From Dehalococcoidia bacterium (GTDB lineage: Bacteria > Chloroflexota > Dehalococcoidia > UBA2979): DNA of 64,000 nucleotides. Each line of letters opens with the position of its first letter. The stretch's first letter is position 1. Below the pieces are notes generated by a model. The model did no database searches. It was not told where the DNA came from and worked only from the letters and a program-made list of their open reading frames with translations. The translations under genes and the position numbers were made by a program. Where the stretch lies: positions 768,001 through 832,000 of the forward strand of contig OZ219872.1 of the NCBI GenBank assembly GCA_964291495.2. Reading direction: 5' to 3'. This document shows, piece by piece, positions 27,679-47,314 of this stretch.

Positions 27679-28860
27679 CTACCAGTCGCCGACGCTGCCG
27701 TCGGCGAGCACCGGGTGACCCGTGTCGCGACCCTGGAACGGGTAGCGCTCGGCGATCGACTCGTCGAACTTGATGCCGATGCCCGGCGCCTGCGGCAGGT
27801 CGACGTAGCCGTCCGTGACGACGAGCGGCTCGACCAGCATCTCGTCCCACAGCGCGTCGCCGCCGATCGGGATCGAGCTCTCCTGGATGATGAAGTTGGG
27901 CGTGCAGGCCGCGATGTGCAGGCTCGCCAGCGTCACCCCCGGCCCTCGAGGGTTGTGCGGGGCGATGCCCATGAAGTACGTCTCCGCCGCCGCGGCGATG
28001 CGCCGCGTCTCGGAGATGCCGCCTGCGTGGCCGAGGTCCGGCTGCAGCACGGCGACGGCCTGCGACTCGATCGTCGTGCGGAAGTCCCAGCGGTTGTACA
28101 TCCGCTCGCCCGTGGCGAGCGGCACGTTCGTCGCCGCCGAGACCAGCAGCATCGCGTCGACGTTGCGCGGCGGCACCGGCTCCTCGAAGAACAGCAGGTC
28201 GAGCGGCTCGAGGGCGTTCGCGATCTCGATCGCCACGGTCGGCGTCTGCTTGCCGTGCGCGTCGACCATGACCTTCATGTCGTCGCCGACGGCGTCGCGC
28301 ACGGCGGCGATGTTCTCGTACGTCTCCTGCACCTTCTTGCGGTCGCTGATCCATTCCGCAGTACCGGGAATCCCGGTCTTGAAGGCGCGGTAGCCCTCCT
28401 CGATGCGCTGGTGCGTGCGATCGACGATCTCCTCGCGGCTGGCGCCGCCGGGGTGGGTGTAGAGCAGGATGCGGTCGCGCACCGCGCCGCCCATGAGGCG
28501 CCAGACCGGCACGCCGAAGCGCTTCCCTGCGATGTCCCACAGCGCCTGGTCGATGGCGCTCTGCGCGGTCATCAGGATCACGCCGCCGCGCTGGAAGCTG
28601 TTGCGGTAGAGCACCTGCCAGTGGCGCTCGATCAGGCTGTCGTCCTGGCCGACGAGGTACTCCGCGAAGTCCTCGACGGCGCCGGCGACGGCCCGCGTCT
28701 TGTGCGGGAGGGTGCCCTCCCCGAAGCCCTCGAGGCCGTCGTCCGTGCGGATCCGCACGATCATCATGTTGCCGCGGCCCCCGTAGCGGGCCGCGTCTGC
28801 GCCACCGGTGCCCTGTTCGAAATTGACCATGAACGGCCGCACTTCGACGATGCGCGACAT
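27679..28860 (-). CDS. Galactonate dehydratase-like enolase (paralog 1)
   Basis: SAIDQALWDIAGK, MVDAHG, FFEEP, ATGER, APHNP. Confidence 0.9.
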   Translation of the reverse strand: MSRIVEVRPFMVNFEQGTGGADAARYGGRGNMMIVRIRTDDGLEGFGEGTLPHKTRAVAGAVEDFAEYLVGQDDSLIERHWQVLYRNSFQRGGVILMTAQSAIDQALWDIAGKRFGVPVWRLMGGAVRDRILLYTHPGGASREEIVDRTHQRIEEGYRAFKTGIPGTAEWISDRKKVQETYENIAAVRDAVGDDMKVMVDAHGKQTPTVAIEIANALEPLDLLFFEEPVPPRNVDAMLLVSAATNVPLATGERMYNRWDFRTTIESQAVAVLQPDLGHAGGISETRRIAAAAETYFMGIAPHNPRGPGVTLASLHIAACTPNFIIQESSIPIGGDALWDEMLVEPLVVTDGYVDLPQAPGIGIKFDESIAERYPFQGRDTGHPVLADGSVGDW

Positions 28861-29661: not shown

Positions 29662-30840
29662 CTACCAGTCGCCGACGCCGCCGTCGGCGACCGTCGGGTG
29701 GGCCGTGTCGGCGCCCGTGTAGGGGAAGCGGTCGAGCAGCGCCTCGTCGAACGTGATGCCGAGGCCGGGCGCACGCGGCAGGTCGACGTAGCCGTCGCTG
29801 ACCGACAGTGGCTCGACGAGCATTGCGTCCCACAGTTCACTGCTCCCGCCGCGGGGAATCGCCGACTCCTGGATGATGAAGTTGGGCGTGCAGGCCGCGA
29901 TGTGCAGGCTCGCCAGCGTCACCCCCGGCCCTCGAGGGTTGTGCGGGGCGATGCCCATGAAGTAGGTCTCCGCCGCCGCGCTGATGCGGCGCGTCTCGGA
30001 GATGCCGCCCGCGTGGCCGAGGTCCGGCTGCAGCACGGCGACGGCCTGCGACTCGATCGTCGTGCGGAAGTCCCAGCGGTTGTACATCCGCTCGCCGGTC
30101 GCAAGGGGAACGGTGACCGCATTCCGGACCAGCAGCATCGCCTCGACGTTGCGCGGCGGCACCGGCTCCTCGAGAAACAGCAGGTCCAGCGGCTCGAGCG
30201 CATGCCCGAGCTCGATCGCCACGGTCGGCGAGAGCTTGCCGTGGCAGTCCAGCATCAGCTTGACGTCGTCGCCGACCGCCTCGCGGACTGCGGCGACCAG
30301 CTCGAAGGTCGTCTCCACCAGCGGCGTGTCGCGGATCGGCTCGGGCGACGGGGCGATCGTCAGCTTGAGGGCGCGGTAGCCCTCCTCGACACGCTCCAGC
30401 GAGTGCTGGACGACCAGATCGCGGTCCCAGCCGCCGGGGTGGGTGTAGAGCAGGATGCGATCGCGCACCGCGCCGCCCATGAGTTGCCAGATCGGCACGC
30501 CGAAGCGCTTCCCGGCGATGTCCCACAACGCCTGATCGATGGCGCTCTGGGCGGTCATCATGATCACGCCGCCTCGCTGGAAGCTGTTGCGGTAGAGCAC
30601 CTGCCAGTGGCGCTCGATCAGGCTGTCGTCCTGCCCGACGAGGTACTCCGCGAAGTCCTCGACGGCGCCGGCGACCGCGCGCGCCTTGTGCGGGAGGCTC
30701 CCCTCGCCGAAGCCTTCCATGCCGTCGTCCGTACGGATCCGCACGATCACCATGCCACCACGGCGAGGGCGCTCGCGGCCCGTGATGTTCTCGACTTCCA
30801 GGCCCACCTTGAACGGCGTCACCTCAACGATTCTCGCCAT
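29662..30840 (-). CDS. Galactonate dehydratase-like enolase (paralog 2)
   Basis: Same motifs as 27679..28860 with long near-identical blocks. Confidence 0.9.
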   Translation of the reverse strand: MARIVEVTPFKVGLEVENITGRERPRRGGMVIVRIRTDDGMEGFGEGSLPHKARAVAGAVEDFAEYLVGQDDSLIERHWQVLYRNSFQRGGVIMMTAQSAIDQALWDIAGKRFGVPIWQLMGGAVRDRILLYTHPGGWDRDLVVQHSLERVEEGYRALKLTIAPSPEPIRDTPLVETTFELVAAVREAVGDDVKLMLDCHGKLSPTVAIELGHALEPLDLLFLEEPVPPRNVEAMLLVRNAVTVPLATGERMYNRWDFRTTIESQAVAVLQPDLGHAGGISETRRISAAAETYFMGIAPHNPRGPGVTLASLHIAACTPNFIIQESAIPRGGSSELWDAMLVEPLSVSDGYVDLPRAPGLGITFDEALLDRFPYTGADTAHPTVADGGVGDW

Positions 30841-30905: not shown

Positions 30906-31334
30906 TCAGGCGTCGAGGCGGGCGACGTTGTCGAAGAAGCGCTGCAGGCTGGGGTTGTAGCGGAAGAACTTGTCCGCCCGGTAGCCGTCGCCCTGCTCGT
31001 TGCTGTGGATCGGGTCATCCATGCTCAGGTCGAGCGAGTTGAGCGTGTGGTCGCCCGTCGCCCGCCCGTTCGCGCGGATGTCGTCGATCATCTCCTGCCA
31101 CAGCTCCGGCGGCATGTTGATCACGAAGTCGGCCTCGGCCAGCTCCTCGTCGTTCGCCTCGCGCACGTCCGTGCAGGTCAGCACCTCGAAGGTGAGGCGG
31201 TAGCCCGCCTCGCCGATGCGCAGCCCGACGACCGCGTCGAGGCGCCCGATCTTCCGGAAGTCCTCGTCCTCGTTCGCCAGGTCCGCCAGCGCCTGCAGCC
31301 ACTCCACCGAGGGGAAGGTCAACACCGTCACCAT
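30906..31334 (-). CDS. SCP2-like (sterol carrier fold) protein
   Basis: FPSVEWLQALADLANED N-terminal signature, ADFVI. Confidence 0.65.
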   Translation of the reverse strand: MVTVLTFPSVEWLQALADLANEDEDFRKIGRLDAVVGLRIGEAGYRLTFEVLTCTDVREANDEELAEADFVINMPPELWQEMIDDIRANGRATGDHTLNSLDLSMDDPIHSNEQGDGYRADKFFRYNPSLQRFFDNVARLDA

Positions 31335-31360
31335 GCCACTCCTGCCACTGCGTTGCCGTA

Positions 31361-31657
31361 CTAGAACTCGATCGGTTCGCCCGGATCGTCGACCTCATCG
31401 AACGAGGTCAGCCGCTCGAGGTGCCGCATCGGCTCCGCCTCCGGCGTCCCCGCGATCAGATCGTCGACCATCTGCTTGTACTTTGGATCGAGGTCACGGA
31501 TCTGGTCGACCTCGCGGCGCGTGATCGCGAACGGCGAGATCATCCGCTCGATCTGCGGCGAGCCGCACTCGGTGCAGCCCGAGGGCTCGCGGTCGCCGCG
31601 CACGAGCGCCTCGAAGCGGGATGCGCACGCGTCGCACTCGTAGACGTGGATCGGCAC
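31361..31657 (-). CDS. FmdB-family zinc ribbon protein
   Basis: MPIHVYECDAC...FE...CTECGS..IERMIS. Confidence 0.88.
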   Translation of the reverse strand: MPIHVYECDACASRFEALVRGDREPSGCTECGSPQIERMISPFAITRREVDQIRDLDPKYKQMVDDLIAGTPEAEPMRHLERLTSFDEVDDPGEPIEF

Positions 31658-31658
31658 G

Positions 31659-32807
31659 CTAGCCCGCCGCCTCGCCGGCTGCGTCCGCAGCGCCGTTGGT
31701 GCTCGGCTCCTCGAGGTTCTCGCGCATCCTCGAGGTGAGCCACGGATCGCGGTCGAGGCCGATCCAGCTCATGCGCGCGAGGTAGGCGCGCGTCCAGTCG
31801 CGGCGCATCCGGCGCACGAGTTGCATCCCCGCGTCCATGCCGCGTACGCCGCCGCCGAAGACGATTGCGAGCGCCTCCTGCAGCACGTGGTCATCCTCGT
31901 CGCGGTTGACCGCGGCCTCCGCGCCGACCAGCGCGCGGTTCCAGGAGTCCCGGAACTCCGGCTCGCTGCTCAGCCCGTAGCGCGAGTGCTCCATGCCGTA
32001 GGCGATGTGCCGCGCCTTGTCCGCCACCATCCCGCCGGCGAGCGCGCGATCCGCCTCGCTGGGCCCGTGGGCCGCGAGGTAGCGGAGCAGTGTCAGCAGG
32101 TAGCTGCCGCGCAGCACGTGCAGCGCCAGGCAGGTTTCCGTCCAGCCGACGCGGCTCTCGAGCAGCATGCGGTTGGCCCAGCCCGGGCTCTCGAGGCCAA
32201 GCTCCGGGACGTTGAGCAGCGCGCGCTTGCGCCAGCCCTCGAACTGCCGCGCGGACTCGAAGACCTGGCGCGAGAGGCAGAGCTTCACCTCGTGGAAGCC
32301 GTAGCTCAGCAGCTCCAGCCACGAGGAGACCACCTCAGCCTCGATCGAGCCGATGTGGCTCAGCTCGGTCGCCACCTGGCACATCGCCAGCTCGACATCA
32401 CGAGGCAGGTCGTGGGCGCTCTCCCACGGCACATCCGTGGCCGTGGACCAGCGGCGCGAGATCGACTCCTCGTAGAGCTCGGCGGCGTGGTCGGCCCACT
32501 GGTGGGACTTCTTGCTGATAAAGGCGGGACCCAGCGGCACCGCGCCCGCTACGGGGTAGGTGCCGCGCGGCATTCTCGAGGGCTCGTCCCAGTCATCCGG
32601 GAGATCGCCGTAGACGCCGATGTTGATCGCCTCGAGGGTGAGGCCACCCGGGCCTCGCGGGGCGCGCGTGCCCCACTGGCGGGAGCGCTTCATCCAGCTG
32701 AAGTCGGTGAAGTACGAGGCAGCGAGCGGCGAGGTGATGTCGGGCTCGCGCTTCTCCGGCGCCTCGTCCGGACGTGGCGCCTCGTCCTGGCGTTGCTCTG
32801 TCGTCAT
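31659..32807 (-). CDS. Ferritin-like protein with degenerate diiron ligands (putative structural beta subunit)
   Basis: Aligns with neighbour (LYEE..RRWS.ATD.PW) but has ESARQ and DKARH instead of DEARH. Confidence 0.75.
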   Translation of the reverse strand: MTTEQRQDEAPRPDEAPEKREPDITSPLAASYFTDFSWMKRSRQWGTRAPRGPGGLTLEAINIGVYGDLPDDWDEPSRMPRGTYPVAGAVPLGPAFISKKSHQWADHAAELYEESISRRWSTATDVPWESAHDLPRDVELAMCQVATELSHIGSIEAEVVSSWLELLSYGFHEVKLCLSRQVFESARQFEGWRKRALLNVPELGLESPGWANRMLLESRVGWTETCLALHVLRGSYLLTLLRYLAAHGPSEADRALAGGMVADKARHIAYGMEHSRYGLSSEPEFRDSWNRALVGAEAAVNRDEDDHVLQEALAIVFGGGVRGMDAGMQLVRRMRRDWTRAYLARMSWIGLDRDPWLTSRMRENLEEPSTNGAADAAGEAAG

Positions 32808-32822
32808 ACGTGCCGCGGTCGC

Positions 32823-33992
32823 CTAGGCGCTGGCGTAGGCGCGGAGCATCTCGCCCGCGCTGCGGCCTTCTTCGAAGCGCTCGCCGAAGCCGGCGACGGT
32901 CACGCGCTGGACGTACTCCTTGACCTGGCGCTGGCGCATCGCGAGAGCGAGCTTCTGGCCTTCCTCGATCTTGTCCTTGCCGCCACCGAGCAGGATGGCG
33001 AGTGCGGCGTTCGAGGGGTTCGCGTTCGCGGCCGGGTTCTGGTTCGTGCCCGTGATCAGCCCGCGCTCCGCCTCGTCCAGGTAGCTGTGAATCTCCTCGC
33101 GCCGTTCCGGCATCGTCTGGCCGAGGTACTGCAGGTGCATCACCCCAAAGGCGACGTGCCGCGCCTCATCGGAGGCAGCGAGGCGGTAGATCATCTTCTC
33201 GGCGTCGTTGTAGGCCATGCGCTCGCCCATGCGGAAGATGGTCAGCACGGAGCCCTCGCCGGAGATGTGCAGCTTGGCCGACATCTCCGTGAAGTCGCGC
33301 GCGCTGTCGATGGTGCCGGCGAAGACGTCGCTGCCGGCGCGCGGGTTGCGCTCCAGCAGACCGCCGCCGTTGGCGAGTGCGCGCTTGCGGAAGACGTCGA
33401 GGTGCCGCGCCTCGTCGACCACCTGCGAGATCAGGAACATGCGCGGCTCGAAGTACTCGGGCGTGATCTCGGAGATCCAGCGGCCGGGCACGTCGCCGGC
33501 GACGAACTCGATCTCGGTCAGGAAGGTCGCCAGCTTGCACTCGGCGGCCTCGATGTCGTCGGGCAGCTCGGTGAGGGTGTGCCAGGGGATGTCGGTCGCC
33601 GAGGACCACTGCCGCTGTACCGCCTCCTCGTAGAGCTCGGCGGCGTTGCGCAGCCAGATGTCCGCCTTGGTGCGGACGCGGTAGTTGCCGACGCGCGGCG
33701 CGACCTTGCGCGGCTGCGTGCCGCGCGGGCGGCCGGTCAGGTTGTCGCTCTCGTCGGGGACCTCGGCGGGATCGCTGCCCGCGAGGTCCTGCAGCAGCAG
33801 GCCGCCGCGGCTGAGGTCGGACTCCTCGCCCGAGCCCCAGATCTCGGCCTTGCGCAGCCAGTCGAGCTTGTAGCCGCGCTCCTGCGCGAAGCTCATCAGC
33901 TCATCGAACGGCCCCTCAGGCTGCGACCCGTTCGAGGCCGCACCGTTGGTGGTGGGCTCGCTCGCCGTCGGCTCACTTGCGGTCGTCGTCAT
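32823..33992 (-). CDS. Ferritin-like diiron protein (putative catalytic alpha subunit)
   Basis: Complete E...DEARH...E...DEARH ligand set. Confidence 0.85.
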   Translation of the reverse strand: MTTTASEPTASEPTTNGAASNGSQPEGPFDELMSFAQERGYKLDWLRKAEIWGSGEESDLSRGGLLLQDLAGSDPAEVPDESDNLTGRPRGTQPRKVAPRVGNYRVRTKADIWLRNAAELYEEAVQRQWSSATDIPWHTLTELPDDIEAAECKLATFLTEIEFVAGDVPGRWISEITPEYFEPRMFLISQVVDEARHLDVFRKRALANGGGLLERNPRAGSDVFAGTIDSARDFTEMSAKLHISGEGSVLTIFRMGERMAYNDAEKMIYRLAASDEARHVAFGVMHLQYLGQTMPERREEIHSYLDEAERGLITGTNQNPAANANPSNAALAILLGGGKDKIEEGQKLALAMRQRQVKEYVQRVTVAGFGERFEEGRSAGEMLRAYASA

Positions 33993-34119
33993 CGCTTCGT
34001 CCCTTGTCCGGGCACGACTTACGCGGGGAATACGGGGCGTCGCTCACGGACCCCCGTCCCGCTCCGTCAAAGGTAGCAAGTCGGGGCGCTTCCCGCATCC
34101 CGCCGGGGCCTCTGAGCCG

Positions 34120-34155
34120 GCGCTACGCGATCACGCCCTCGGCCCTGAACTGCTC
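34120..34155 (+). repeat. Direct repeat copy of the 3' end of CoA-transferase 35733..36992
   Basis: gcgctacgcgatcacgccctcggccctgaactgctc vs 35730-35765 gcgctacgcgatcacgccctcggcgctgagctgctc (2 mismatches). Confidence 0.9.
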
Positions 34156-34156
34156 C

Positions 34157-35650
34157 CTACTCGATCGTGAGGATGTACCCGCCGGGGCCGCTCAGATCAA
34201 GGTCGCCCACGACCATGAAGTAGGTCCCGGCGTGCGGCGCGCGATAGACAAGCGCCGAGTCGGTCCCGAACAGGCCCCCGCCGCCATCGTCATCCACTTC
34301 TATGTCCTCGGCGCCCTCATAGTCGATGATCAAGGTCGTGTCGATGAGAATCGAACTCACCGTGACCTCGATCCGCTCACCCGCGCTCAGTGCGATCATG
34401 AAGTAGTCGATATCACCGGGTGCATCGACGCTTCCCACGAGGGTCTGGCCGACCTCGACCCATTGCCCGTCGTCGGGGTCGTACAGTGGCGCCACGCTGT
34501 GGCTGCTTGTGAGTACGAAGGCGCCCCGCGCCTCGTCGAACTGAAAGACCCTCAGAAAGAGCGGCCCGTAGCGATCGACGGTGATCGAGCCGATCTCGGT
34601 TCCCGAGTAGCCGTCATCGACCTCCAGGATGCTCACGCCGGATGAGTCGAAGACCTCGAGGGCGCCATCGTTCGCGCCCCGCCATTCGATGAGAACCTCG
34701 GCCCCCATCGGCTCGTTGATGACATAGATGCCCTCGTCCCAGAGATTCGCAAGCTCGACCTCGTAGCGCCGCTCGCCGCCCGAGAGCGGAACATGCCGAG
34801 CAGCCAGTCCGGACGGATCGCGCCCGGCAATCAGTTCCTCGATGCGGGGATGGATGTCCGTCGCCGACGCGACCAGCCCGAAGTCCCCTTCGGTGAAGTT
34901 GAAGCCGCTCATGCCGATGACCTCGCCCATCGACGAAAGCAGCGCGCCCCCGCTCTGGCCGCCCGCCGCAACGGCGTCGGTCTGCAGATAGGTGATCCCG
35001 AGCACCTCCCATTCCCGGTAACGAGAGAGCAGGCCGCGGCTGAGCGTTGGCTTCGGAAACGCCTCGACCTCTCCCGGGTAGCCAAGCAGGAACACCTCGC
35101 TGCCGATCGGCAGGTCCTCGCCATCCACCAACGCGACTGCATCCGCAGCCGCATCGACGGGGCCGAGCACTGCGATGTCGGCCAACAGATCCCAGCCCCG
35201 CAGCGGGACGGCGGTGAACTCCGATCCGTCCGGGAGCACCACGCGCGCCGCCTCGTACGGCCAGACGACGTGAGCGTTGGTCACGACATACCCACCCTCG
35301 ATCAGGATCCCGCTGCCCGTGCTCATCCCGGTCTCGATGAACGCGATCGCCGGAGAAACCCTGTCGAAGATCTCGGCGGGAGTGAGGTGGGCGGTCCTGG
35401 GCGTGTCCTCGGCCGTGGCCGCCGCCCTCGCGGTGGCGGTGGCTTCGGCGGTGACCGCCACCGCCGGAGTGGCGGTGCCCCCAGCCGTGGCTACCGGCGC
35501 CGGAGTTGCCGTGGCCTCCGCCGGCGCCCTGTCGTCCGGCTCGCCGCCGCACGCTGACCACAACGCAGCGGCCATCAGGCAGGCAGTCGCGATCTGCGCC
35601 ACCCGGGAACTGTTGCTTGCGAGCCGGCCAGCTACCAACGCATTCCCCAA
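34157..35650 (-). CDS. Trypsin-like serine protease lipoprotein with C-terminal PPC-like domains
   Basis: WSAC lipobox, GSG, TNAHVV, DIAVL, QTDAV..GQSGG; start may be GTG at 35602. Confidence 0.85.
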   Translation of the reverse strand: MGNALVAGRLASNSSRVAQIATACLMAAALWSACGGEPDDRAPAEATATPAPVATAGGTATPAVAVTAEATATARAAATAEDTPRTAHLTPAEIFDRVSPAIAFIETGMSTGSGILIEGGYVVTNAHVVWPYEAARVVLPDGSEFTAVPLRGWDLLADIAVLGPVDAAADAVALVDGEDLPIGSEVFLLGYPGEVEAFPKPTLSRGLLSRYREWEVLGITYLQTDAVAAGGQSGGALLSSMGEVIGMSGFNFTEGDFGLVASATDIHPRIEELIAGRDPSGLAARHVPLSGGERRYEVELANLWDEGIYVINEPMGAEVLIEWRGANDGALEVFDSSGVSILEVDDGYSGTEIGSITVDRYGPLFLRVFQFDEARGAFVLTSSHSVAPLYDPDDGQWVEVGQTLVGSVDAPGDIDYFMIALSAGERIEVTVSSILIDTTLIIDYEGAEDIEVDDDGGGGLFGTDSALVYRAPHAGTYFMVVGDLDLSGPGGYILTIE

Positions 35651-35732
35651 TCGGAGTCACCGCTGGCGGAGCCCGGATGAGGCACGTCTCGCGCATCCCG
35701 CAAGGCCCATGAGGAGCTTGCGCGTCGGCGCG

Positions 35733-36992
35733 CTACGCGATCACGCCCTCGGCGCTGAGCTGCTCGACCTCGTCCTCGTCCATGCCGAGCAGCTCGCAGA
35801 AGACGTAGTGGTTCGCCTCGCCCATCTCCGGGGCGGGATCTAGGCGGTCGGTCGGGGTCCTGGAGAAGCGCCAGGGGGGCGAGAACCAGCGCGTCGTGCC
35901 ACCATCGTGCGGCAGCGGCACCTCGCGCCACGCGCCGCGCGCCTCGAGCTGCGGGCTGGCCGCCACGTCCTCCGGGTAGCCGACCGGCGTTGCCGCCACG
36001 CCGACCGCCTGGAGGCGCTCCATCAGCTCGAAGCCGTCCTGGTCCGCCGTCCACTCGCCGATCCGTGCGTCCAGCTCGTCCTGGTTCGCGAGCCGGCCCT
36101 CGACGTGCTCGAAGCGCGGACCGGCGGCCCACTCGGGCGCGCCCATCGCCGCCACCAGCGCGCGCCACTCCTCGTCCGAGGTGACGGCGATCGTGATCCA
36201 GCGTCCGCCCTCGTGCTCGCCGGCGCTCGGGTAGACGCCGTGCGGCGCCCACGCCGGGTGGCGGTTGCCGCGCCGCGCCGGTACGCGGCCGTTGTAGGAG
36301 TAGTCGAGGAAGGCGTCGCCGAGGTACGAGGCGAGCGTCTCGCGGTTCGCGAGGTCGATGTGCTGCCCGCGGCCGGTGCGCTTAGCGCGCACGAGCGCCG
36401 CGATCGAGACGAAGGCGCCCATCGCGCCGGCGCACATGTCGGAGGGAAGGCGGAACAGCACGGGCGGGCCGTCCTCGTAACCCCACATCGAACTGAAGCC
36501 GCTCATCGCCGCGAAGACCGAGGCGTACCCGGCGTCCTCGCGGTCCGGGCCGAAGCCGCCGCCCGCGGACATCGAGATGTAGACCAGCCCCGGATTGACC
36601 TCGCGCAGCACCTCCCAGCCGAGACCCCGGCGCTCGAGCACGCCGGGCCGGAAGTTCTCGCCGACCATGTCGCTGACGGCGACGAGGCGCTTGGCCAGCT
36701 CGATCGCACGCGGCTCGCGGAGGTTGAGCGTGACGCTGCGCTTGTTGAGCCCGAACTCGTCGAGGCCACCGCGCGCGCGGCGCACCGACATCTGGCCCTG
36801 CGTGCGGTCCTGCGCCGCGGCGCGCCCGGAGCGCGTGCGCACCGGATCGCGGCGTGCGCTGCTCTCGATCTTGATGCACTCCGCACCCAGCGAGGACCAC
36901 ATCAGCGAGCAGTAGCCGCCGACCAGCACGTGCGTGAAGTCGACGATGCGCACGCCCTCGAGGGGCCGTCGCGGGAGGCCGTCGCTCGTCAT
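35733..36992 (-). CDS. CaiB/BaiF (family III) CoA-transferase
   Basis: PLEGVRIVDF, NKRSVTLNL, ENFRPG, catalytic-position Asp in PSDMCAG. Confidence 0.92.
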   Translation of the reverse strand: MTSDGLPRRPLEGVRIVDFTHVLVGGYCSLMWSSLGAECIKIESSARRDPVRTRSGRAAAQDRTQGQMSVRRARGGLDEFGLNKRSVTLNLREPRAIELAKRLVAVSDMVGENFRPGVLERRGLGWEVLREVNPGLVYISMSAGGGFGPDREDAGYASVFAAMSGFSSMWGYEDGPPVLFRLPSDMCAGAMGAFVSIAALVRAKRTGRGQHIDLANRETLASYLGDAFLDYSYNGRVPARRGNRHPAWAPHGVYPSAGEHEGGRWITIAVTSDEEWRALVAAMGAPEWAAGPRFEHVEGRLANQDELDARIGEWTADQDGFELMERLQAVGVAATPVGYPEDVAASPQLEARGAWREVPLPHDGGTTRWFSPPWRFSRTPTDRLDPAPEMGEANHYVFCELLGMDEDEVEQLSAEGVIA

Positions 36993-37017
36993 GGCCGCAC
37001 CTCGCTCCGTCGCACCG

Positions 37018-38259
37018 CTACACCACGCCGCTCTGCCTCAGCACGTCCAGCTGGCGCGCCGTGCGGCCGAGGCGTCCGCAGATCACTTCGCGGTTGTGCT
37101 CGCCGAGCAGCGGGGCTGCTCGGCGGAAGCTCGGCGAATCCTCGGTGGCGCGGAAGAGCTGCAGCGGATACTCGGCCGGGCCCGCGATCGGGTGGTAGCC
37201 GTCGACGAAGAAGCCGCGCGCCCGCTCGTGTTCCGAGGTCGAGACCTCGTCGAGGTTGAGGAAGCGCCCGATCGGCGCGCCGAGGCGCTGGGCGGCGCGG
37301 TAGATCTCCTCGCCGGGGATGTCCTTCGCCCACTGCTCCATGCCGCGCTGGATCTCGTCTCCGCGCGCGGCGCGGCCCGCCTGTGTCTCGAACTCCGGGT
37401 CGAGCGCCCACTCCGGCTCGCCCATCAGCTCGACGAGCATCTTCCAGTGATGGTTCTGCGCGGCGTAGACCACGATGTAGCCGTCCGCGCAGGGCACGCA
37501 GTCGCCGTAGGCGTGCTTGTTGGTCGGCCGCGTCTCGTAAATCCCGCCCGTCAGGTAGCTGCGCATCTGGAAGCGGTGCATCACGGAGACGTGCGCCTCC
37601 TGCCTCGAGAGGTCGATGAACTGGCCGCCGACCATCGGCTGGACGAACAGCGCCGCCGCGATGGCGAGCGCGGCGCTTGTGCCGGAGATCGCCTCCCCCG
37701 CCGCGTAGGGCAGCTTGACCGGCTCGCGGTCGGGGTGCGTGTCGTAGGCGAGCGCGCCCGGGTTGGTGAAACCGTCGCCGCCGTACATGTAGAGGTTGAG
37801 GTCCTCGGCGCGATAGTCGCGCTGCGGCCCGGTGGAGCCGAAGGGCGTGATCGCGGCGACGATCAGCTGCGGGAAACTCTCCTCGAGGCTGGGGTAGTCC
37901 AGCCCCAGCCGCTCCGCCTCCGCCGGCGGCAGGTCCTCGATCAAGACGTCCGCTTCGGCCAGCAGCTCGAACAGCAGCTCGCGCCCCTGCGCCGACTCGA
38001 TGTCCAGGCTGACGCCGAGCTTGTTGGTGTTGAAGTGCATGAACGCGAGGCTACGCTCGCGGTCCTCGATGTCGCCCGCGTAGGGCGGAACCCCCCGCGC
38101 TGGGTCGCCCTCGGGGTCCTCGACCTTGATCACCTCGGCGCCGAGGTCGGCGAGCAGCTTCCCGGTGTAGGGCGCGGCGAAGAGGCGGCCGTACTCGACG
38201 ACCGTGACGCCTTCCAGCAGGCCCCCGGCGGGCGCGCCCTCGCCGTCCGCGGCGGTCAG
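37018..38259 (-). CDS. CaiB/BaiF CoA-transferase (apparently lacks catalytic Asp; BbsE-like partner)
   Basis: LADLGAEVIKVE, FNTNKLGVSLD, APLLGEHN; start probably CTG overlapping upstream TGA. Confidence 0.85.
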   Translation of the reverse strand: MTAADGEGAPAGGLLEGVTVVEYGRLFAAPYTGKLLADLGAEVIKVEDPEGDPARGVPPYAGDIEDRERSLAFMHFNTNKLGVSLDIESAQGRELLFELLAEADVLIEDLPPAEAERLGLDYPSLEESFPQLIVAAITPFGSTGPQRDYRAEDLNLYMYGGDGFTNPGALAYDTHPDREPVKLPYAAGEAISGTSAALAIAAALFVQPMVGGQFIDLSRQEAHVSVMHRFQMRSYLTGGIYETRPTNKHAYGDCVPCADGYIVVYAAQNHHWKMLVELMGEPEWALDPEFETQAGRAARGDEIQRGMEQWAKDIPGEEIYRAAQRLGAPIGRFLNLDEVSTSEHERARGFFVDGYHPIAGPAEYPLQLFRATEDSPSFRRAAPLLGEHNREVICGRLGRTARQLDVLRQSGVV

Positions 38260-39611
38260 GAGGACGCCCCCTGCTGCTGCTCGCGCTCGAGCTTGGTGCT
38301 CTTGAAGACGCCGCGCTGGCGCGCGTCCTTGCCGACGAGCTGGCGCTGCGCCGTGAACATGTCCGGCAGCGGCACGCCGACCGCGCCCTCCTCGGACAGC
38401 GTCTCGATCTCCGCTTCGTCGTAGCCGAGCTCGGCCAGCACCGCCTCCGTGTGCTCGCCGAGGATCGGCGAGTGGTTCGCGGTCTGCGGCGGCGGGAAGT
38501 TGCTGAAGCGCACGGGGCTGGCGGGCATGACCAGCTCGCCGTCGCGCGGGTCGTCCACGGTCACTGCCAGGACGTTCTCCTCGAACTGGCCATGAGTCGT
38601 GAACTCCTCGTAGTTCAGGCAGGGGTCGCAGCGCAGCTGGCGTGCGCGGAAGCGATCCTGCCACTCCTGGCGGGTCTGCTTCGAGAACGCCTCGTCGAGC
38701 ACCGGGTAGAGCTCGAGGCGCGCGGCGTTGCGCTTCTCCACCGTGTCATAGCGAGGGTCGTCGAGGATGTGCTCGATCTCGAGGATCTCGCAGACCATGC
38801 GCCACTCCGTGTCGTCCTGGCCGAAGATCGTGAGCACGTAGCCGTCGCTCGCCGGGTAGGCGGCGTAAGGGAAGCGCGAGCGCACCCCGCCGCGGCCCTC
38901 CTTGCGGAACTCGATGCCCTCGGAGAGGTAGTGGGCGATCGCCGGCCACTGCATCAGCACGGCGGTGTTCACGAGGTTGTTCGTCACCTTCTGCCCGCGG
39001 CCGGTGCGCTCGCGGTGCCAGAGCGCGGCCATCAGCGAGTAGGCGTTGACGGCGCCACCGCCGTAGTCGATGACGTTATGTCCATTTACCCACGGCGACT
39101 GATCGCCATCCGGGTCCGTCTGGCTCGTCACGAAGCCGGCGAAGGCCTGCGCCCACATGTCGCCGCCCCGGCGGTGCGAGAGCGGGCCGCTCTCGCCGAA
39201 CATCGAGAACGAGCCGTAGACCAGCCCCGGGTTGATCTTCGAGAGCTCCTCGTAGCCGAGGCCCATGCGGTCCATCGTGCCCGGCCGGAAGTTCTCGACC
39301 AGCACGTCGGCGCGCTCGCAGAGCCGCTTGACGGCGTCGAGGCCGCGCTCGTCCTTGAGGTTCACGGAGAAGCTGCGCTTGTTCAGGTTGGTGCAGATGA
39401 AGGTGATGCTGTCGACGAACGGCTCCGCGGTGAGCCGCGAGAAGTCGCCCTCGAGCGGCTCGACCTTGATCACATCGGCCCCGAGATCGGCCAGCAGCCG
39501 TGTGGCCACGGGGCCGAACGCGAACTGGCTGAAGTCGAGCACCTGCAGGCCGCTCAGCAGTCCCGGCGCCGCGCCGTTCGAGCTACCTTCGTTCGATCCG
39601 TTGTCCGCCAT
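38256..39611 (-). CDS. CaiB/BaiF CoA-transferase
   Basis: LADLGADVIKVE, NLNKRS, ENFRPG, IDYGGG. Confidence 0.92.
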   Translation of the reverse strand: MADNGSNEGSSNGAAPGLLSGLQVLDFSQFAFGPVATRLLADLGADVIKVEPLEGDFSRLTAEPFVDSITFICTNLNKRSFSVNLKDERGLDAVKRLCERADVLVENFRPGTMDRMGLGYEELSKINPGLVYGSFSMFGESGPLSHRRGGDMWAQAFAGFVTSQTDPDGDQSPWVNGHNVIDYGGGAVNAYSLMAALWHRERTGRGQKVTNNLVNTAVLMQWPAIAHYLSEGIEFRKEGRGGVRSRFPYAAYPASDGYVLTIFGQDDTEWRMVCEILEIEHILDDPRYDTVEKRNAARLELYPVLDEAFSKQTRQEWQDRFRARQLRCDPCLNYEEFTTHGQFEENVLAVTVDDPRDGELVMPASPVRFSNFPPPQTANHSPILGEHTEAVLAELGYDEAEIETLSEEGAVGVPLPDMFTAQRQLVGKDARQRGVFKSTKLEREQQQGASS

Positions 39612-39715
39612 GCTCGCCCCCTCGCGCTCGCGGTCCGCGCGCTCGGTGCCTGTTGTACCACCTTGAGGGGCGGCACGGGGCGGCGCCGACCGGCAAGCCG
39701 ACGCGATAGGGCGCC

Positions 39716-40180
39716 CTAGAACCGGACGCGGCTGCCCTTCGCACAGTAGCGAGGGTCCGCGGAGGCGCCCGTGGCGGCGAACTCCCGCGCCGCCTCGCAG
39801 GCGCGCAGCAGCTCCTCGTCGCGCTCGCGCGGCAGGTAGTCGCTCGGCGTGCCGGCCGTGTAAGCCGCGACCAACGCGCCGCCGAAGACGGCCGGGATCT
39901 CCGGCGAGTCGTCGACGACGAAGTCCGGCGTAAGCGGGACGCCGAGCACCTCGAGCGCCGCCTCGTGGTCGGCGAGCGGCTTCTGGTAGCAGGCCTCCAC
40001 CAGGTGCTCCAGCCCGTGCTCCCGGATCACGGCCGAGCGGTCGCCGGCGCCGGACCAGACGTGCACGCGGTGGCCCTCCTCCCGCAGCCGCTCGAACACC
40101 TCGCGCGTCCACGGGCGCAGCGATCCGTCGAGGCCGAGAATCGTGTAATCGACGTCGAAGAAGATGTCGAGCGTGCGCAT
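39716..40180 (-). CDS. HAD-superfamily phosphatase-like protein
   Basis: FFDVDYT, WS, K, FVVDD motifs. Confidence 0.8.
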   Translation of the reverse strand: MRTLDIFFDVDYTILGLDGSLRPWTREVFERLREEGHRVHVWSGAGDRSAVIREHGLEHLVEACYQKPLADHEAALEVLGVPLTPDFVVDDSPEIPAVFGGALVAAYTAGTPSDYLPRERDEELLRACEAAREFAATGASADPRYCAKGSRVRF

Positions 40181-40194
40181 CGCGTCCAGTCGAG

Positions 40195-40338
40195 CTAGTC
40201 GGCCGAGGGCAGCTCGCGCGGCGCGAGCAGCACCATCTGCTTCGCGCAGCAGTGGATCTCGCCCTCGCCGCGGCGGATGCAGAGCACCACGGTGCCGCAC
40301 TCCTCGCAGCGATAGCGGTGGCCGAGGTCGTTGACCAC
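40195..40338 (-). CDS. Small desulforedoxin-like protein (CxxC...CC), 47 aa
   Basis: Manual translation MVNDLGHRYRCEECGTVVLCIRRGEGEIHCCAKQMVLLAPRELPSAD. Confidence 0.8.
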   Translation of the reverse strand: MVNDLGHRYRCEECGTVVLCIRRGEGEIHCCAKQMVLLAPRELPSAD

Positions 40339-40341
40339 GGG

Positions 40342-40458
40342 CTAGCGCCTCGTGACGGGCTGGTCGCAGCAGGTCATTTCGCCGCTGCCGCCGGTGGTGA
40401 CGATGAACTCGGAGCCGCAGCGCTCGCAGTAGTAGCGTTTGCCGGTCTGGTTCGCCAT
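40342..40458 (-). CDS. Small desulforedoxin-like protein (CxxC...CC), 38 aa
   Basis: MANQTGKRYYCERCGSEFIVTTGGSGEMTCCDQPVTRR; GAGGGG SD. Confidence 0.8.
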   Translation of the reverse strand: MANQTGKRYYCERCGSEFIVTTGGSGEMTCCDQPVTRR

Positions 40459-40555
40459 GCCCGCCCCTCGCACGCGCCCCGCGTTCCCGTGAACGGCATT
40501 ATAGTGGCGCGTGCCGGTACGCCGGAACGCCGACACGCAACGAAGGAGCGACCCC

Positions 40556-41857
40556 GTGACGACAGAGCGCCGAGAACGACCCAGCACCTGGGGCAAGATC
40601 ACCGACGCGGAGATGGAGCGCATCGCCCAGCGCTTCGCCTCGTGGCGACCCGATGTGCCGTGGTGGCGCGACTGCACCCGCGACGCCTTCGAGCACTACG
40701 CGCTCGGCATCGGCAACGCCAACCCGCTCTTCCAGGACGAGGAGTACGCCGAGAACACGCGCTGGGGCGGGCTGGTCGCCCACCCGCTGTTCCTCGACTC
40801 GTTCGGCCGTCGCGCCGGACAGGGCGGTGGGGGCTTCCCCGGCGTGCACGCCACGCACGCCTCGCTGTTCTGGACGTTCTACAAGCCGGTCACGCTGGGC
40901 CTGCGCATCCAGATGAAGAGCTGCATGTGGGAGCACTACCTCGCGCCCAGCCGCTTCGCCGGCCGCATGCTGGACGTCGTCCGCCGCCACGCCTGGGTGG
41001 ACGAGGACGACGGCACGATGATCGCCAACAACTGGGGCCTCGTGAAGCGCTGGGAGCGCGACGCCGCACGCGGCCGCCGCGACACCGCCAGCCCGCACCG
41101 CGACTGGCGCCGCCACGTCTACACCGACGAGGAGCTGCAGCAGCTCTGGGAGGCCTACGACGCGATCGAGGTCCGCGGCGCCGAGCCGCGCTACTACGAG
41201 GACGTCGAGGTCGGCGACAAGGTCGGCCCCTACATCACGATGCCCTACGTGGGACGCGAGATCATCTCGTACTACATGGGCACCGGCGCGCCGTTCATGA
41301 TGTCCAACACCAACATGTACAACTACTTCAAGCGCCACCCCGGCGCGAACGTGCCGGACCCGGAGACGCAGACGCCGGACGTGCCCGAGCGCACCCACTA
41401 CGATCAGGAGTTCGCGCGCTTCGCCGGCTTCCCGGACATGTTCGACGTGCTCCAGCCGCGCAGCGGCTACGGCACCACGATGGTCACCAACTGGATGGGC
41501 GACGACGCCTTCCTGCGCGAGCTCTCGATGCTCGGCCGGCGCCCGGTCGCCTACGGTGACGTCTGCTGGATCCACGGCGAGGTCACCGAGAAGTTCCAGC
41601 GCGGCGACGAGAACCTCGTCAAGATCGTGATGGTCTACGACAGCCAGAAGTGGCGCGCCTCGTGGGGTCACGCCCTCGTCTCGCTGCCGTCGCGCGAGCG
41701 CGGCCCCGTCGTGCTGCCGGAGCCGGGCGTCGACCCGGAGACGGAGCCCTACGACAAGGAGAACCCCACGCCCGAGTACGCCAAGGAGATCCTCTACCAG
41801 CCGGAGCCGGACCTCCCGGACGCCGCCTTCATCAAGGACGAGGTCGGCGTCAGGTAG
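40556..41857 (+). CDS. Double-hotdog MaoC-family dehydratase
   Basis: NPLFQDEEYA..TRWGGLVAHP, RYYEDVEVGD, HYD; AAGGAG SD. Confidence 0.85.
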   Translation: MTTERRERPSTWGKITDAEMERIAQRFASWRPDVPWWRDCTRDAFEHYALGIGNANPLFQDEEYAENTRWGGLVAHPLFLDSFGRRAGQGGGGFPGVHATHASLFWTFYKPVTLGLRIQMKSCMWEHYLAPSRFAGRMLDVVRRHAWVDEDDGTMIANNWGLVKRWERDAARGRRDTASPHRDWRRHVYTDEELQQLWEAYDAIEVRGAEPRYYEDVEVGDKVGPYITMPYVGREIISYYMGTGAPFMMSNTNMYNYFKRHPGANVPDPETQTPDVPERTHYDQEFARFAGFPDMFDVLQPRSGYGTTMVTNWMGDDAFLRELSMLGRRPVAYGDVCWIHGEVTEKFQRGDENLVKIVMVYDSQKWRASWGHALVSLPSRERGPVVLPEPGVDPETEPYDKENPTPEYAKEILYQPEPDLPDAAFIKDEVGVR

Positions 41858-45795: not shown

Positions 45796-47279
45796 GTGCG
45801 CACCGGCCCCGCAGCGAGGACTTCGGCGAGCGCCTCAGCTTCGACCGCGGCACGCCCGGCCGCCGCGCCGTCGACGTGCCCTGGTGGGACGGAATGCGGA
45901 CGCCGCTGCCCGAAGCGCACCTGCTGCGCGACTCGGTGCGGCTGCCGGAGCTGAGCCAGGGCGGCCTCGTGCGCTACTACACGGCGCTCTCCGCGCGGAA
46001 CTACGGCATCGACTCCGGCACTTACCCGCTCGGCTCCTGCACGATGAAGTACAACCCGAAGGTGGACGACCTCGTGGCGTCGCTGCCGGGCTTCGCCGGT
46101 GCACATCCGCAGGCCGCCGAGGAGGACGCGCAGGGCACCCTGCGCACGCTGCTGGAGCTGCGCCGGGGCCTCGCCGAGATCACCGGACTGCCCGCCGTGA
46201 GCCTCGCCCCGGCCGCCGGCGCGCACGGCGAGCTGGCGGGCGTGCTGATGATCACGCGCGCCCTCGAGGATCGCGGCGAGCTGGAGACGCGGCGGCGCAT
46301 CCTCGTCCCGGACTCGGCGCACGGCACGAACCCGGCGACCGCCGCGATGGCGGGCTTCACCGTCACGCAGATCCCCACCGGCCCGGATGGCTCGCTCGAT
46401 CGCGCCACCATCGAGCGCGAGCTGGACGAGACCGTCGCGGCGATGATGGTCACCGTCCCGAACACGCTCGGGCTCTGGGAGAACGGCATCGAGGAGGTTG
46501 CGGAGCTGATCCACGAGGCGGGCGCCTACCTCTACGGCGACGGCGCGAACCTCAACGCGATCATGGGCCGCGTCCGCTACGGCGACCTCGGGTTCGACGT
46601 CGTGCACCTCAACCTGCACAAGAGCTTCAGCACGCCGCACGGCGGCGGCGGCCCCGGCGCGGGGCCCGTCTGCTGCAGCGAGGAGCTGGCCCCCTACCTG
46701 CCGACGCCCGTGCTCGAGGAGGACGAGGACGGCCTCGTGCGCCTCGTCGCGCCGGAGCGCAGCATCGGGCGGCTCCAGCAGTTCCACGGCAACGTCGGCG
46801 TGCTGATCCGCGCCTACGCCTACATGCGCGCGCTCGGCCTCGAGGGCCTGCGCGCGGTCTCCGGTCAGGCCGTGCTCAACGCCAACTACCTGCGCGTGCT
46901 GATGCACGGCCACTACGACCTGCCGTACGACCAGCCCGTGCTGCACGAGGTGGTCTTCTCCGGCACGCGCCAGCGTCGCGAGCACGGCGTGCGCACCTAC
47001 GACATCGCGAAGCGGCTGATCGACCACGGCTTCCACCCGCCGACGGTCTACTTCCCGCTGATCGTCGAAGAGGCGCTGATGATCGAGCCGACCGAGACCG
47101 AGCCGCCCGAGGCGATCGAGGCGCTCGCCGAGGCGATGATCGCGATCGCCGAGGAGTCGGCCGAGGACCCGGACACCCTGCACGGCGCGCCCTGGACGGC
47201 GCCGCTCGGTCGCCTCGATGAGGCGACCGCCGCCCGCCGCCCGGTGTTGCGCTGGCAAGGCGGCGAGGACGGGAAGTAG
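45792..47279 (+). CDS. gcvPB: Glycine dehydrogenase subunit 2
   Basis: YPLGSCTMKYNPK, SAHGTNPA, HLNLHKSFSTPHGGGGPG. Confidence 0.96.
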   Translation: MSAHRPRSEDFGERLSFDRGTPGRRAVDVPWWDGMRTPLPEAHLLRDSVRLPELSQGGLVRYYTALSARNYGIDSGTYPLGSCTMKYNPKVDDLVASLPGFAGAHPQAAEEDAQGTLRTLLELRRGLAEITGLPAVSLAPAAGAHGELAGVLMITRALEDRGELETRRRILVPDSAHGTNPATAAMAGFTVTQIPTGPDGSLDRATIERELDETVAAMMVTVPNTLGLWENGIEEVAELIHEAGAYLYGDGANLNAIMGRVRYGDLGFDVVHLNLHKSFSTPHGGGGPGAGPVCCSEELAPYLPTPVLEEDEDGLVRLVAPERSIGRLQQFHGNVGVLIRAYAYMRALGLEGLRAVSGQAVLNANYLRVLMHGHYDLPYDQPVLHEVVFSGTRQRREHGVRTYDIAKRLIDHGFHPPTVYFPLIVEEALMIEPTETEPPEAIEALAEAMIAIAEESAEDPDTLHGAPWTAPLGRLDEATAARRPVLRWQGGEDGK

Positions 47280-47314
47280 CCTCCCCGGCAGGGACGGAGC
47301 AGAGAGGCGGCATC

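Follow-up and report, generated by a model that had tools for sequence, protein, structure and literature searches.

A four-gene module for a predicted ferritin-like dimetal oxidase, with a ligand-less paralogue, a Cys4 ribbon and an SCP2-fold companion, in Dehalococcoidia

We analysed 64,000 nucleotides of a Dehalococcoidia bacterium genome (Chloroflexota; assembly GCA_964291495.2, contig OZ219872.1, positions 768,001 to 832,000 of the forward strand). This whole stretch, hereafter the window, has a G+C content of about 70%, and its genes were called from third-position G+C and family matches. At its centre lie four adjacent genes encoding a ferritin-like protein (alpha), a paralogue of alpha that has lost the carboxylate ligands (beta), an FmdB-type Cys4 ribbon and an SCP2-like protein. 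The first-pass annotation had placed them at the end of a long co-directional unit, running from two desulforedoxin-like miniproteins through a HAD-like gene, three CoA-transferases and a protease, with a double-hotdog gene divergently transcribed, and had read the whole as a multicomponent diiron oxygenase acting on CoA thioesters. Every gene that it listed is present on the strand given, the HAD-like gene and the second hotdog half being weakly supported, but the real unit is smaller than first proposed and consists of the following four minus-strand genes:

32823-33992, minus strand: alpha, ferritin-like (R2-type), putative catalytic subunit, 389 aa, with full E/ExxH/E/ExxH ligands
31659-32807, minus strand: beta, paralogue of alpha without carboxylate ligands, presumed non-catalytic partner, 382 aa
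31361-31657, minus strand: FmdB-type Cys4 zinc ribbon, 98 aa (PF09723, TIGR02605)
30906-31334, minus strand: SCP2-fold protein, 142 aa (AlphaFold2 model and Foldseek)

The genes are closely packed, with 15 nt between alpha and beta, 1 nt between beta and the ribbon (which starts 1 nt past the beta stop codon) and 26 nt between the ribbon and the SCP2-like gene.

Alpha keeps a complete E/ExxH/E/ExxH dimetal site on an R2-type helical core. All 22 aligned alphas (43-90% identical to the window alpha) share the ligands E162, E194, H197, E246, E276 and H279 without exception, together with an FRKR...NGGG stretch, H242 and H286, and the mean column identity is 65% in alpha alignment A1. The AlphaFold2 model of alpha has a predicted local distance difference test score (pLDDT) of 87.3 and a predicted TM score (pTM) of 0.84. 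Beta shares 30% identity with alpha (E = 3e-47), and the window beta carries ESARQ and DKARH in place of the alpha ligand motifs. In 27 of 27 aligned betas other residues (A/G, A/S, G and K) stand at all four carboxylate positions, whereas both His residues are retained in most. In a FastTree phylogeny of 157 alpha and beta sequences, built after removal of six near-identical loci (L002-L004 and L006-L008), the module betas all fall on one side of a branch with a support of 100. Alpha and beta likewise form separate groups in a more distant sister clade (about 48% identical), and therefore the duplication is old. Despite having lost all of its carboxylate ligands, beta, an ancient paralogue, is conserved and adjacent to alpha; the pairing of a catalytic-type and a ligand-less ferritin-like protein recognised in the first-pass annotation is real, and it is both ancient and uncurated. 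The genome to which the window belongs encodes one alpha and one beta. At three other loci (L010:10001-11126, L038:9665-11100 and L052:9929-11098) alpha is split across two reading frames, which could reflect a frameshift, a pseudogene or an assembly error.

Neither alpha nor beta has a Pfam match at E <= 0.01, and at E <= 10 only AurF (E = 0.24) is found for alpha and none for beta. The NCBIfam R2lox model (NF006200) matches alpha with 28.2 bits (E = 1e-6), a score that does not reach its cut-off of 194 bits. With no Pfam or NCBIfam family above cut-off, the pair lies outside the characterised families, as had been suggested. When a 72-sequence alpha profile (A4) was run against all PDB sequences, the best match was a VlmB homologue (6d9f/8wvr, E = 1.1e-10); R2lox proteins of Geobacillus (4hr0, E = 1.4e-7), Sulfolobus (E = 2.5e-5) and Mycobacterium tuberculosis (E = 0.016) were also matched, and phenol hydroxylase gave E = 0.74. 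A structural comparison of the alpha model with 48,161 chains (VIA Z-scores) likewise ranked 6d9f first (Z = 23.4, root-mean-square deviation 2.7 over 257 residues), ahead of R2lox 4hr0 (21.5 over 256 residues), the R2 subunit of ribonucleotide reductase (RNR; 21.3), ADO (20.4), subunits of sMMO and phenol hydroxylase (about 19.5), PaaAC (15.6), BoxB (15.5), desaturase (14.7) and AurF (14.0). Four-helix ferritin, Dps and rubrerythrin-like chains reached Z-scores of 10-11 over about 140 residues, compared with 20-23 over about 255 residues for R2, R2lox and VlmB. Foldseek searches with the same model returned the same top group at weak E-values (about 3e-4), and matching clusters in the ESM Atlas are unnamed or called "ferritin-like", one of them carrying an AurF label on 50% of its members. 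Judged by HMM E-values and structural Z-scores, on which the family placement rests, the pair appears to sit in the R2/R2lox/VlmB neighbourhood of the ferritin-like superfamily and to belong to no characterised family. The comparison with PaaA/PaaC and the multicomponent monooxygenases that had been drawn earlier is weakened, since VlmB, R2lox and RNR R2 are nearer by both measures.

The two small proteins are constant in character. The ribbon scores above the cut-offs of both FmdB models, PF09723 (42.6 bits against 34.4, E = 6e-11) and TIGR02605 (40.6 bits against 31.3, E = 2e-10), which supports its earlier identification as an FmdB zinc ribbon. Its four Cys are invariant in 26 sequences, which share a conserved LDPxY motif; in the gene order with a single SCP2-like gene, the C-terminus also carries a DPGxPIxF tail. 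The window genome contains a single full-length ribbon copy, the only one with the module-specific C-terminal part. The SCP2-like protein, by contrast, has no Pfam or NCBIfam sequence match even at E = 10, the Pfam SCP2 models included, and its identity was borne out by fold. For its AlphaFold2 model (pLDDT 93.7), the 15 best Foldseek matches (chains of nine PDB entries) belong without exception to SCP2 or UbiJ-SCP2 proteins. Among them are 1wfr (E = 2.5e-5), 2cx7 (TM 0.68/0.74) and UbiJ-SCP2 6h6o (E = 1e-2), with TM values of 0.63-0.74 for the three chains of the Thermus entries 1wfr and 2cx7. The label "SCP2-like" is right at the level of the modelled fold. The gene is single-copy in the window genome, and a search for longer, fused forms of the protein found none, which is weak evidence.

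Conservation of the gene neighbourhood was surveyed by tblastn, all-against-all clustering and hidden Markov models (HMMs) from our own alignments in 97 loci, comprising the window, 83 related loci and 13 loci from a sample of the phylum; L049, a duplicate of L014, was dropped. In 66 loci alpha is a strong match and is followed by 4.5 kb or more of downstream sequence. Beta adjoins alpha in 58 of the 66, alpha, beta, ribbon and SCP2-like genes occur together in 49, and beta and the SCP2-like gene occur without the ribbon in three. Two gene orders occur: in 27 loci, among them the window, the order is alpha-beta-ribbon-SCP2 (one-SCP2 loci below), and in 22 it is alpha-beta-SCP2-SCP2-ribbon (two-SCP2 loci).

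Co-occurrence across genomes points in the same direction. Of 401 evenly sampled Chloroflexota genomes, 17 contain any alpha match (including the unpublished G173 and G272, both weak) and seven have alpha-beta pairs. A profile search for the SCP2-like protein gave matches in 7 of the 401 genomes, exactly those with alpha-beta pairs (G000, which is the window genome, G195, G228, G315, G339, G348 and G372, from five families), although this count ignores kinship and related genomes are not independent. In G228, G372 and G348 the SCP2-like gene is not linked to the pair and sits among unrelated genes. We regard this profile search as the strongest single result, and co-occurrence that holds without linkage speaks for a dedicated partner. 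By synteny and genome co-occurrence, the SCP2-like protein and the Cys4 ribbon are dedicated companions of the pair, so this part of the first-pass annotation survived the survey well. In complex prediction, the assembly of alpha, beta and ribbon with the SCP2-like partner scored 0.84, with 0.00 for the partner-replaced controls and 0.81 for the alpha-replaced control, so that the score weighs neither way on binding.

Some loci show local rearrangements of the module. At L073 (13168-13722), a LEM-3-like GIY-YIG domain protein lies within an insertion of about 2 kb, possibly a mobile element, between the two SCP2-like genes, and gaps between both SCP2-like genes are also seen in L075, L080, L084 and L088 (about 2 kb insertion). 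In L079, L082 and L086 the first SCP2-like gene is present alone, with no ribbon within 10 kb.

Alpha belongs to a large family, with more than 2463 matches among 90%-identity clusters; among the 120 clusters listed, names are no better than "hypothetical" or "ferritin-like domain-containing", and where an organism is named, these are Chloroflexota or Dehalococcoidia metagenome-assembled genomes. When 1.84 billion 50%-identity representatives were searched with a profile, there were 1069 matches at E <= 1e-3, 543 at 1e-10 and 191 at 1e-30, and species-representative genomes contain at least 584 alpha loci. We found no paper on the alpha-beta-ribbon-SCP2 architecture in the literature searched, which did not cover subscription journals. 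Five distant members (P0165, P0174, P0181, P0248 and P0200) have an N-terminal TusA-like or SnoaL-like domain fused to the ferritin-like domain, the TusA-like domains matching at E = 3e-7 to 3e-5 and above cut-off in P0181 alone.

Alphas also occur without partners. Such orphan alphas, 62-71% identical to the window alpha, were seen in L032, L040, L042-L044, L046, L048 (two of them, 1.7 kb apart) and L050-L052, and further ones in L055, L057, L062, L065, L068 and L069. In the tree they are nested within the alpha clade of the one-SCP2 loci, and, according to record titles, at least six orphan-bearing genomes also hold an alpha-beta locus elsewhere. Their neighbours include UvrA, ABC-F, BipA, glycerate kinase, phosphotriesterase-family and PNPOx-like genes; around orphan alphas, as around unlinked SCP2-like genes, only unrelated or housekeeping genes were seen.

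The genes on either side of the module in the window are as follows:

40556-41857, plus strand: MaoC/hotdog-fold protein, divergent, 433 aa (PF01575, 29.5 bits against a cut-off of 27; PF13452)
40342-40458, minus strand: desulforedoxin-like miniprotein 1, 38 aa (PF06397, 32.8 bits against a cut-off of 23)
40195-40338, minus strand: desulforedoxin-like miniprotein 2, 47 aa (PF06397, 29.5 bits against a cut-off of 23)
39716-40180, minus strand: HAD-like gene (Hydrolase_3, E = 0.013; Cof subfamily, E = 8e-4; all sub-threshold)
38256-39611, minus strand: family III CoA-transferase (CoA_transf_3, PF02515; E = 2e-99)
37018-38265, minus strand: family III CoA-transferase (CoA_transf_3, PF02515; E = 5e-85)
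35733-36992, minus strand: family III CoA-transferase (CoA_transf_3, PF02515; E = 3e-95)
34157-35575, minus strand: secreted-type serine protease (Trypsin_2 and PPC, by Pfam)
29662-30840, minus strand: enolase-superfamily (MR_MLE) gene, downstream of the module
27679-28860: second enolase-superfamily (MR_MLE) gene, downstream of the module

Both miniproteins belong to the Desulforedoxin family (PF06397) and have CxxC-x15-CC in their translations. The HAD-like gene is weakly confirmed by its sub-threshold matches and a DxDxT motif. In the hotdog protein the MaoC match covers the N-terminal half alone, the C-terminal half being a weak HadB match (E = 8e-4); a luciferase-like monooxygenase gene and then GcvT follow this divergent gene. 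The enolase-superfamily pair is kept in seven of eight close relatives, the contig of L004 stopping after the first of the two genes. Elsewhere, the window is rich in luciferase-like monooxygenases, enoyl-CoA hydratases and short-chain dehydrogenases/reductases, and a LarA-like (Lar_N) gene at 18359-19648, beside ABC-transporter permease genes, is unrelated to the module.

Most of these neighbours are confined to one clade. The desulforedoxin HMM matches only the window and its close relatives L001-L008 (9 of 97 loci), and the HAD-like gene (91-98% identity) is likewise found only there. A full-length tblastn match to the hotdog protein (94-99% identity) in the divergent position occurs only in L001-L008, with partial matches of 22-30% identity elsewhere in L033, L037 and L061, and the arrangement of three CoA-transferases is kept only in L001-L008. 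The protease is absent at the window position in all eight of L001-L008, and hence it is an insertion and not part of the module, just as the first-pass annotation had it; a contig of sequencing run X7 spans alpha, the protease and the adjoining CaiB gene. Of the genes first grouped together, alpha, beta, the ribbon and the SCP2-like gene remain, and the desulforedoxin, HAD, hotdog and protease genes, which are clade-specific or inserted, drop out. Neither the HAD-like gene nor the hotdog gene can be counted as a conserved neighbour, and the desulforedoxins, once proposed as rubredoxin-type carriers, are not general electron carriers for the enzyme. The absence of a reductase, PaaB/D or coupling protein was confirmed: no such family appears among the Pfam matches of 15 window genes (29.6-44.0 kb), and among 110 neighbour proteins of 10 loci there is no PaaB/PaaD, PaaE, ferredoxin or coupling protein and no recurring reductase. 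Other flanks vary and include regulators, GMC oxidoreductases, epoxide hydrolases, MFS transporters and cobalamin genes.

Contigs from an RNA library (run X20) map to beta with 4 differences in 225 nt and to alpha with 2 differences in 276 nt and 6 in 337 nt. They are compatible with transcription of alpha and beta but may also stem from carry-over of DNA, and stretches not covered by RNA contigs are uninformative. X20 contigs also lie, with few differences, on parts of the protease, the CoA-transferases and the HAD/desulforedoxin region. A variant with a 13-nt deletion at window position 37003, in the gap that separates the second CoA-transferase gene from the third, is present in contigs of X20, X5 and X7. 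Most sequencing runs with matching DNA share about 0.2 of words, and labels such as "sponge metagenome" were not used as evidence of habitat.

Several characterised systems resemble parts of the module. Alpha shares with R2lox (PDB 4hr0, 3ee4) the R2-type core, the E/ExxH/E/ExxH ligands and, in the alignment, a Phe four residues past the first His ligand (F201 in alpha). R2lox is marked by a bound long-chain fatty acid and a Mn/Fe cofactor, and a lipophilic ligand would be implied here by the SCP2 partner; to our knowledge, the physiological function of R2lox has not been established. The differences are considerable: alpha scores 28 bits against a cut-off of 194, is 14-19% identical, has about 110 extra N-terminal residues, and is paired with a ligand-less paralogue, a ribbon and SCP2 partners, whereas R2lox is a homodimer. 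The Tyr-Val ether cross-link residues of R2lox, which we take to lie next to the metal site, appear by eye to be unconserved at the positions assumed for them. In the HMMER alignment the invariant Ala165 stands three residues past the first Glu ligand, and the Tyr position falls outside the aligned stretch. A catalytic R2 subunit accompanied by a paralogue without metal ligands is known from yeast, where Rnr4 serves the folding or cofactor assembly of Rnr2. The module likewise combines an R2-fold catalytic-type subunit with a ligand-less paralogue; the yeast pair, however, is part of an RNR, whereas the window genome lacks a class I RNR and the module has other partners.

The PaaABC(D)E and soluble diiron monooxygenase systems also combine a catalytic and a ligand-less ferritin-like protein of shared fold with small accessory subunits. 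Alpha nevertheless has no Pfam match to their families at E = 10 and is structurally farther from them than from R2, R2lox and VlmB, and a reductase, PaaB/PaaD, ferredoxin or coupling protein is missing among the neighbours of the module. A parallel to the SCP2-like protein is offered by UbiJ (an SCP2 protein), which acts with ubiquinone hydroxylases, and by Coq9, which acts with the diiron hydroxylase Coq7; in both cases a lipid-binding accessory presents a hydrophobic substrate to an oxygenase, and UbiJ-SCP2 6h6o is among the fold matches. The SCP2-like protein has no sequence relationship to them, however, and no quinone-biosynthesis neighbours were seen; as far as we know, a ubiquinone pathway is not expected in Chloroflexota. 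VlmB (8wvr, 6d9f), the best match by profile (E = 1.1e-10) and by structure (Z = 23.4) despite an identity of 18-19%, is described as a diiron oxygenase that converts a hydrazine to an azoxy group and works with the membrane protein VlmO in actinomycete clusters for azoxy natural products (PMC11705231). No hydrazine-forming partner or azoxy biosynthetic cluster was found among the module neighbours scanned, in which VlmO was not specifically searched for. BioE is a ferritin-like diiron oxygenase that cleaves C14-C18 acyl-CoA/ACP, is encoded in a biotin operon and is driven in vitro by NADH and phenazine methosulfate (PMC12704756). By this example, ferritin-like diiron oxidation of long-chain acyl thioesters is possible; unlike the module, BioE is an ADO-like homodimer, with no beta, ribbon or SCP2 partners.

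Considering these comparisons, we lean, with some caution, towards reading the core as a self-contained four-gene operon for a heteromeric dimetal-carboxylate (Fe/Fe or Mn/Fe) oxidase or oxygenase of the R2/R2lox/VlmB branch, as profiles and models suggest. The substrate of the predicted enzyme is probably lipophilic, given the modelled SCP2 fold. Alpha and beta would form an R2-like dimer in which beta, by analogy with Rnr4 and Rnr2, may be a structural or assembly subunit. The SCP2-fold subunit would hold a lipophilic substrate, such as a fatty acid, a fatty acyl thioester or an isoprenoid-like lipid, and pass it to the active site of alpha, where O2 would be activated for hydroxylation, desaturation or C-C cleavage. 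Two roles are conceivable for the Cys4 ribbon: a structural Zn clamp, docked on the dimer through its conserved tail, or an Fe(Cys)4 rubredoxin-like electron entry point, the latter of which would explain the absence of a nearby reductase gene. The most specific version, a four-subunit R2lox-type lipid or acyl-thioester oxidase in which beta scaffolds alpha, SCP2 channels the substrate and an Fe(Cys)4 ribbon replaces a reductase and ferredoxin as electron entry, is unlikely to hold in all its parts.

Several observations weigh against such a dedicated four-component enzyme. In 6 of 66 loci (the sister clade L015-L020) an alpha-beta pair stands with no ribbon detected in the loci examined, beta being the only one of the three partners there, and in 8 of 66 loci an orphan alpha has no beta, ribbon or SCP2-like gene nearby. 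Given these eight loci, alpha may work without partners or use them in trans. The flanks are variable and often housekeeping, so that no pathway context fixes the substrate; transferases are not enriched near the two-SCP2 loci, 4 of 22 having one within 10 kb, which is near chance; and an SCP2 fold alone does not show function.

The two more specific parts of the original proposal, rubredoxin-type carriers and a CoA-thioester substrate, are weak. Combined, they would have the enzyme oxidise a hydrophobic acyl-CoA made by the neighbouring CoA-transferases, presented by SCP2 and with electrons from the desulforedoxin-like miniproteins, a scheme that we consider doubtful. Both the window and L001-L008 do have three CoA-transferases immediately upstream, and SCP2 proteins bind acyl-CoAs. 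Ferritin-like oxygenases acting on CoA thioesters are known in PaaA and BoxB, and BioE is a further precedent (PMC12704756). A fused double CoA-transferase of about 820 aa directly follows the SCP2-like gene in 13 one-SCP2 loci. These 13 proteins are 47-86% identical to one another and at most 37% identical to any own-genome paralogue, and are therefore orthologues in conserved synteny. A transferase lies within 10 kb in 22 of 27 one-SCP2 loci. Against this, the genomes are dense in CoA-transferases, so that proximity to the module is largely expected. Over its 3.08 Mb, the window genome has 116 matches to the fused query; roughly a dozen of these are double-domain fusions some 810-860 aa long, and this very large family III expansion is visible in the window itself at 35733-39611 and 47222-48718. 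PF02515 matches number 105, 77 and 111 in three genomes with one-SCP2 loci, compared with 41 and 30 in two with two-SCP2 loci (about 3.5 Mb). By a Poisson estimate from such counts, a transferase within 10 kb (a span of 20 kb) is expected by chance at about half of the one-SCP2 and a quarter of the two-SCP2 loci, and the latter show no enrichment. The window genome lacks an orthologue of the fused transferase; its three upstream transferases were considered as orthologues and rejected, since they match at E = 3.5e-56, 1.3e-31 and 8.7e-34, well below many paralogues, and are ordinary paralogues. They are best treated as context, their link to the module being uncertain. The desulforedoxin genes are restricted to a single clade, and the free carboxylate of the R2lox lipid binds the metals, which a thioester could not do. 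In the subclade that includes the window alpha the substrate may be a CoA thioester, but this is the weakest step, and in general we rate such a substrate as rather unlikely.

Two further explanations dispense with a lipid substrate. Rubrerythrin-like detoxification of peroxide or oxygen, or iron handling, with alpha reduced via an Fe(Cys)4 ribbon in trans and no organic substrate, would suit the variable, often housekeeping flanks and the high conservation of alpha (mean column identity 65% in A1), and a Cys4 ribbon together with a diiron protein recalls the two domains of rubrerythrin. We nevertheless find it improbable, since alpha has a large R2-type core to which rubrerythrin-like, ferritin and Dps chains align only at Z = 10-11, strong pairs are patchily distributed (7 of 401 genomes), and the dedicated SCP2-fold partner and the ligand-less beta would be left unexplained. 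The other explanation is a divergent small subunit of class I RNR, an alpha-beta heterodimer like yeast Rnr2-Rnr4, in which a catalytic and ligand-less pair is known. R2 is among the best structural matches (Z = 21.3), and the genome, which is 93.7% complete, contains no canonical R2 (PF00268, 0 matches). Yet both large RNR subunits are class II, B12-dependent NrdJ proteins that need no R2 (TIGR02504, 643 and 570 bits against a cut-off of 400; NF005736, 1874 against 1737), there is no NrdA-type gene near any module examined, and SCP2-like and ribbon partners, orphan paralogues and a patchy distribution are a poor fit to a housekeeping RNR. An RNR identity is thus close to refuted and highly improbable. 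The two class II RNRs lie at G000:C1:15500-21500 and 130500-134500 (L101 and L100) and are 1230 aa and 595 aa long.

Overall, judging from its sequences and models, the module appears to be a variant of the ferritin-like dimetal oxidases that is large, uncharacterised and built from four components. Some of biology's hardest oxidations fall to enzymes with such dimetal sites. The alpha family is large, highly conserved and without annotation, and its function can be tested directly through the companions that it keeps, namely beta, the Cys4 ribbon and the SCP2-like protein. The module is found in Chloroflexota whose genomes are very rich in CoA-transferases, enolases and luciferase-like monooxygenases through gene expansion, and a novel type of oxygenase there would bear on the oxidation of refractory organic matter. 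If the reading as a four-subunit R2lox-type enzyme were true, the R2lox-like branch would gain its first set of physiological partners and with it a way to approach its function, and a new class of oxidative enzyme would be added to the recalcitrant-carbon metabolism of SAR202-like and sponge-associated Chloroflexota.

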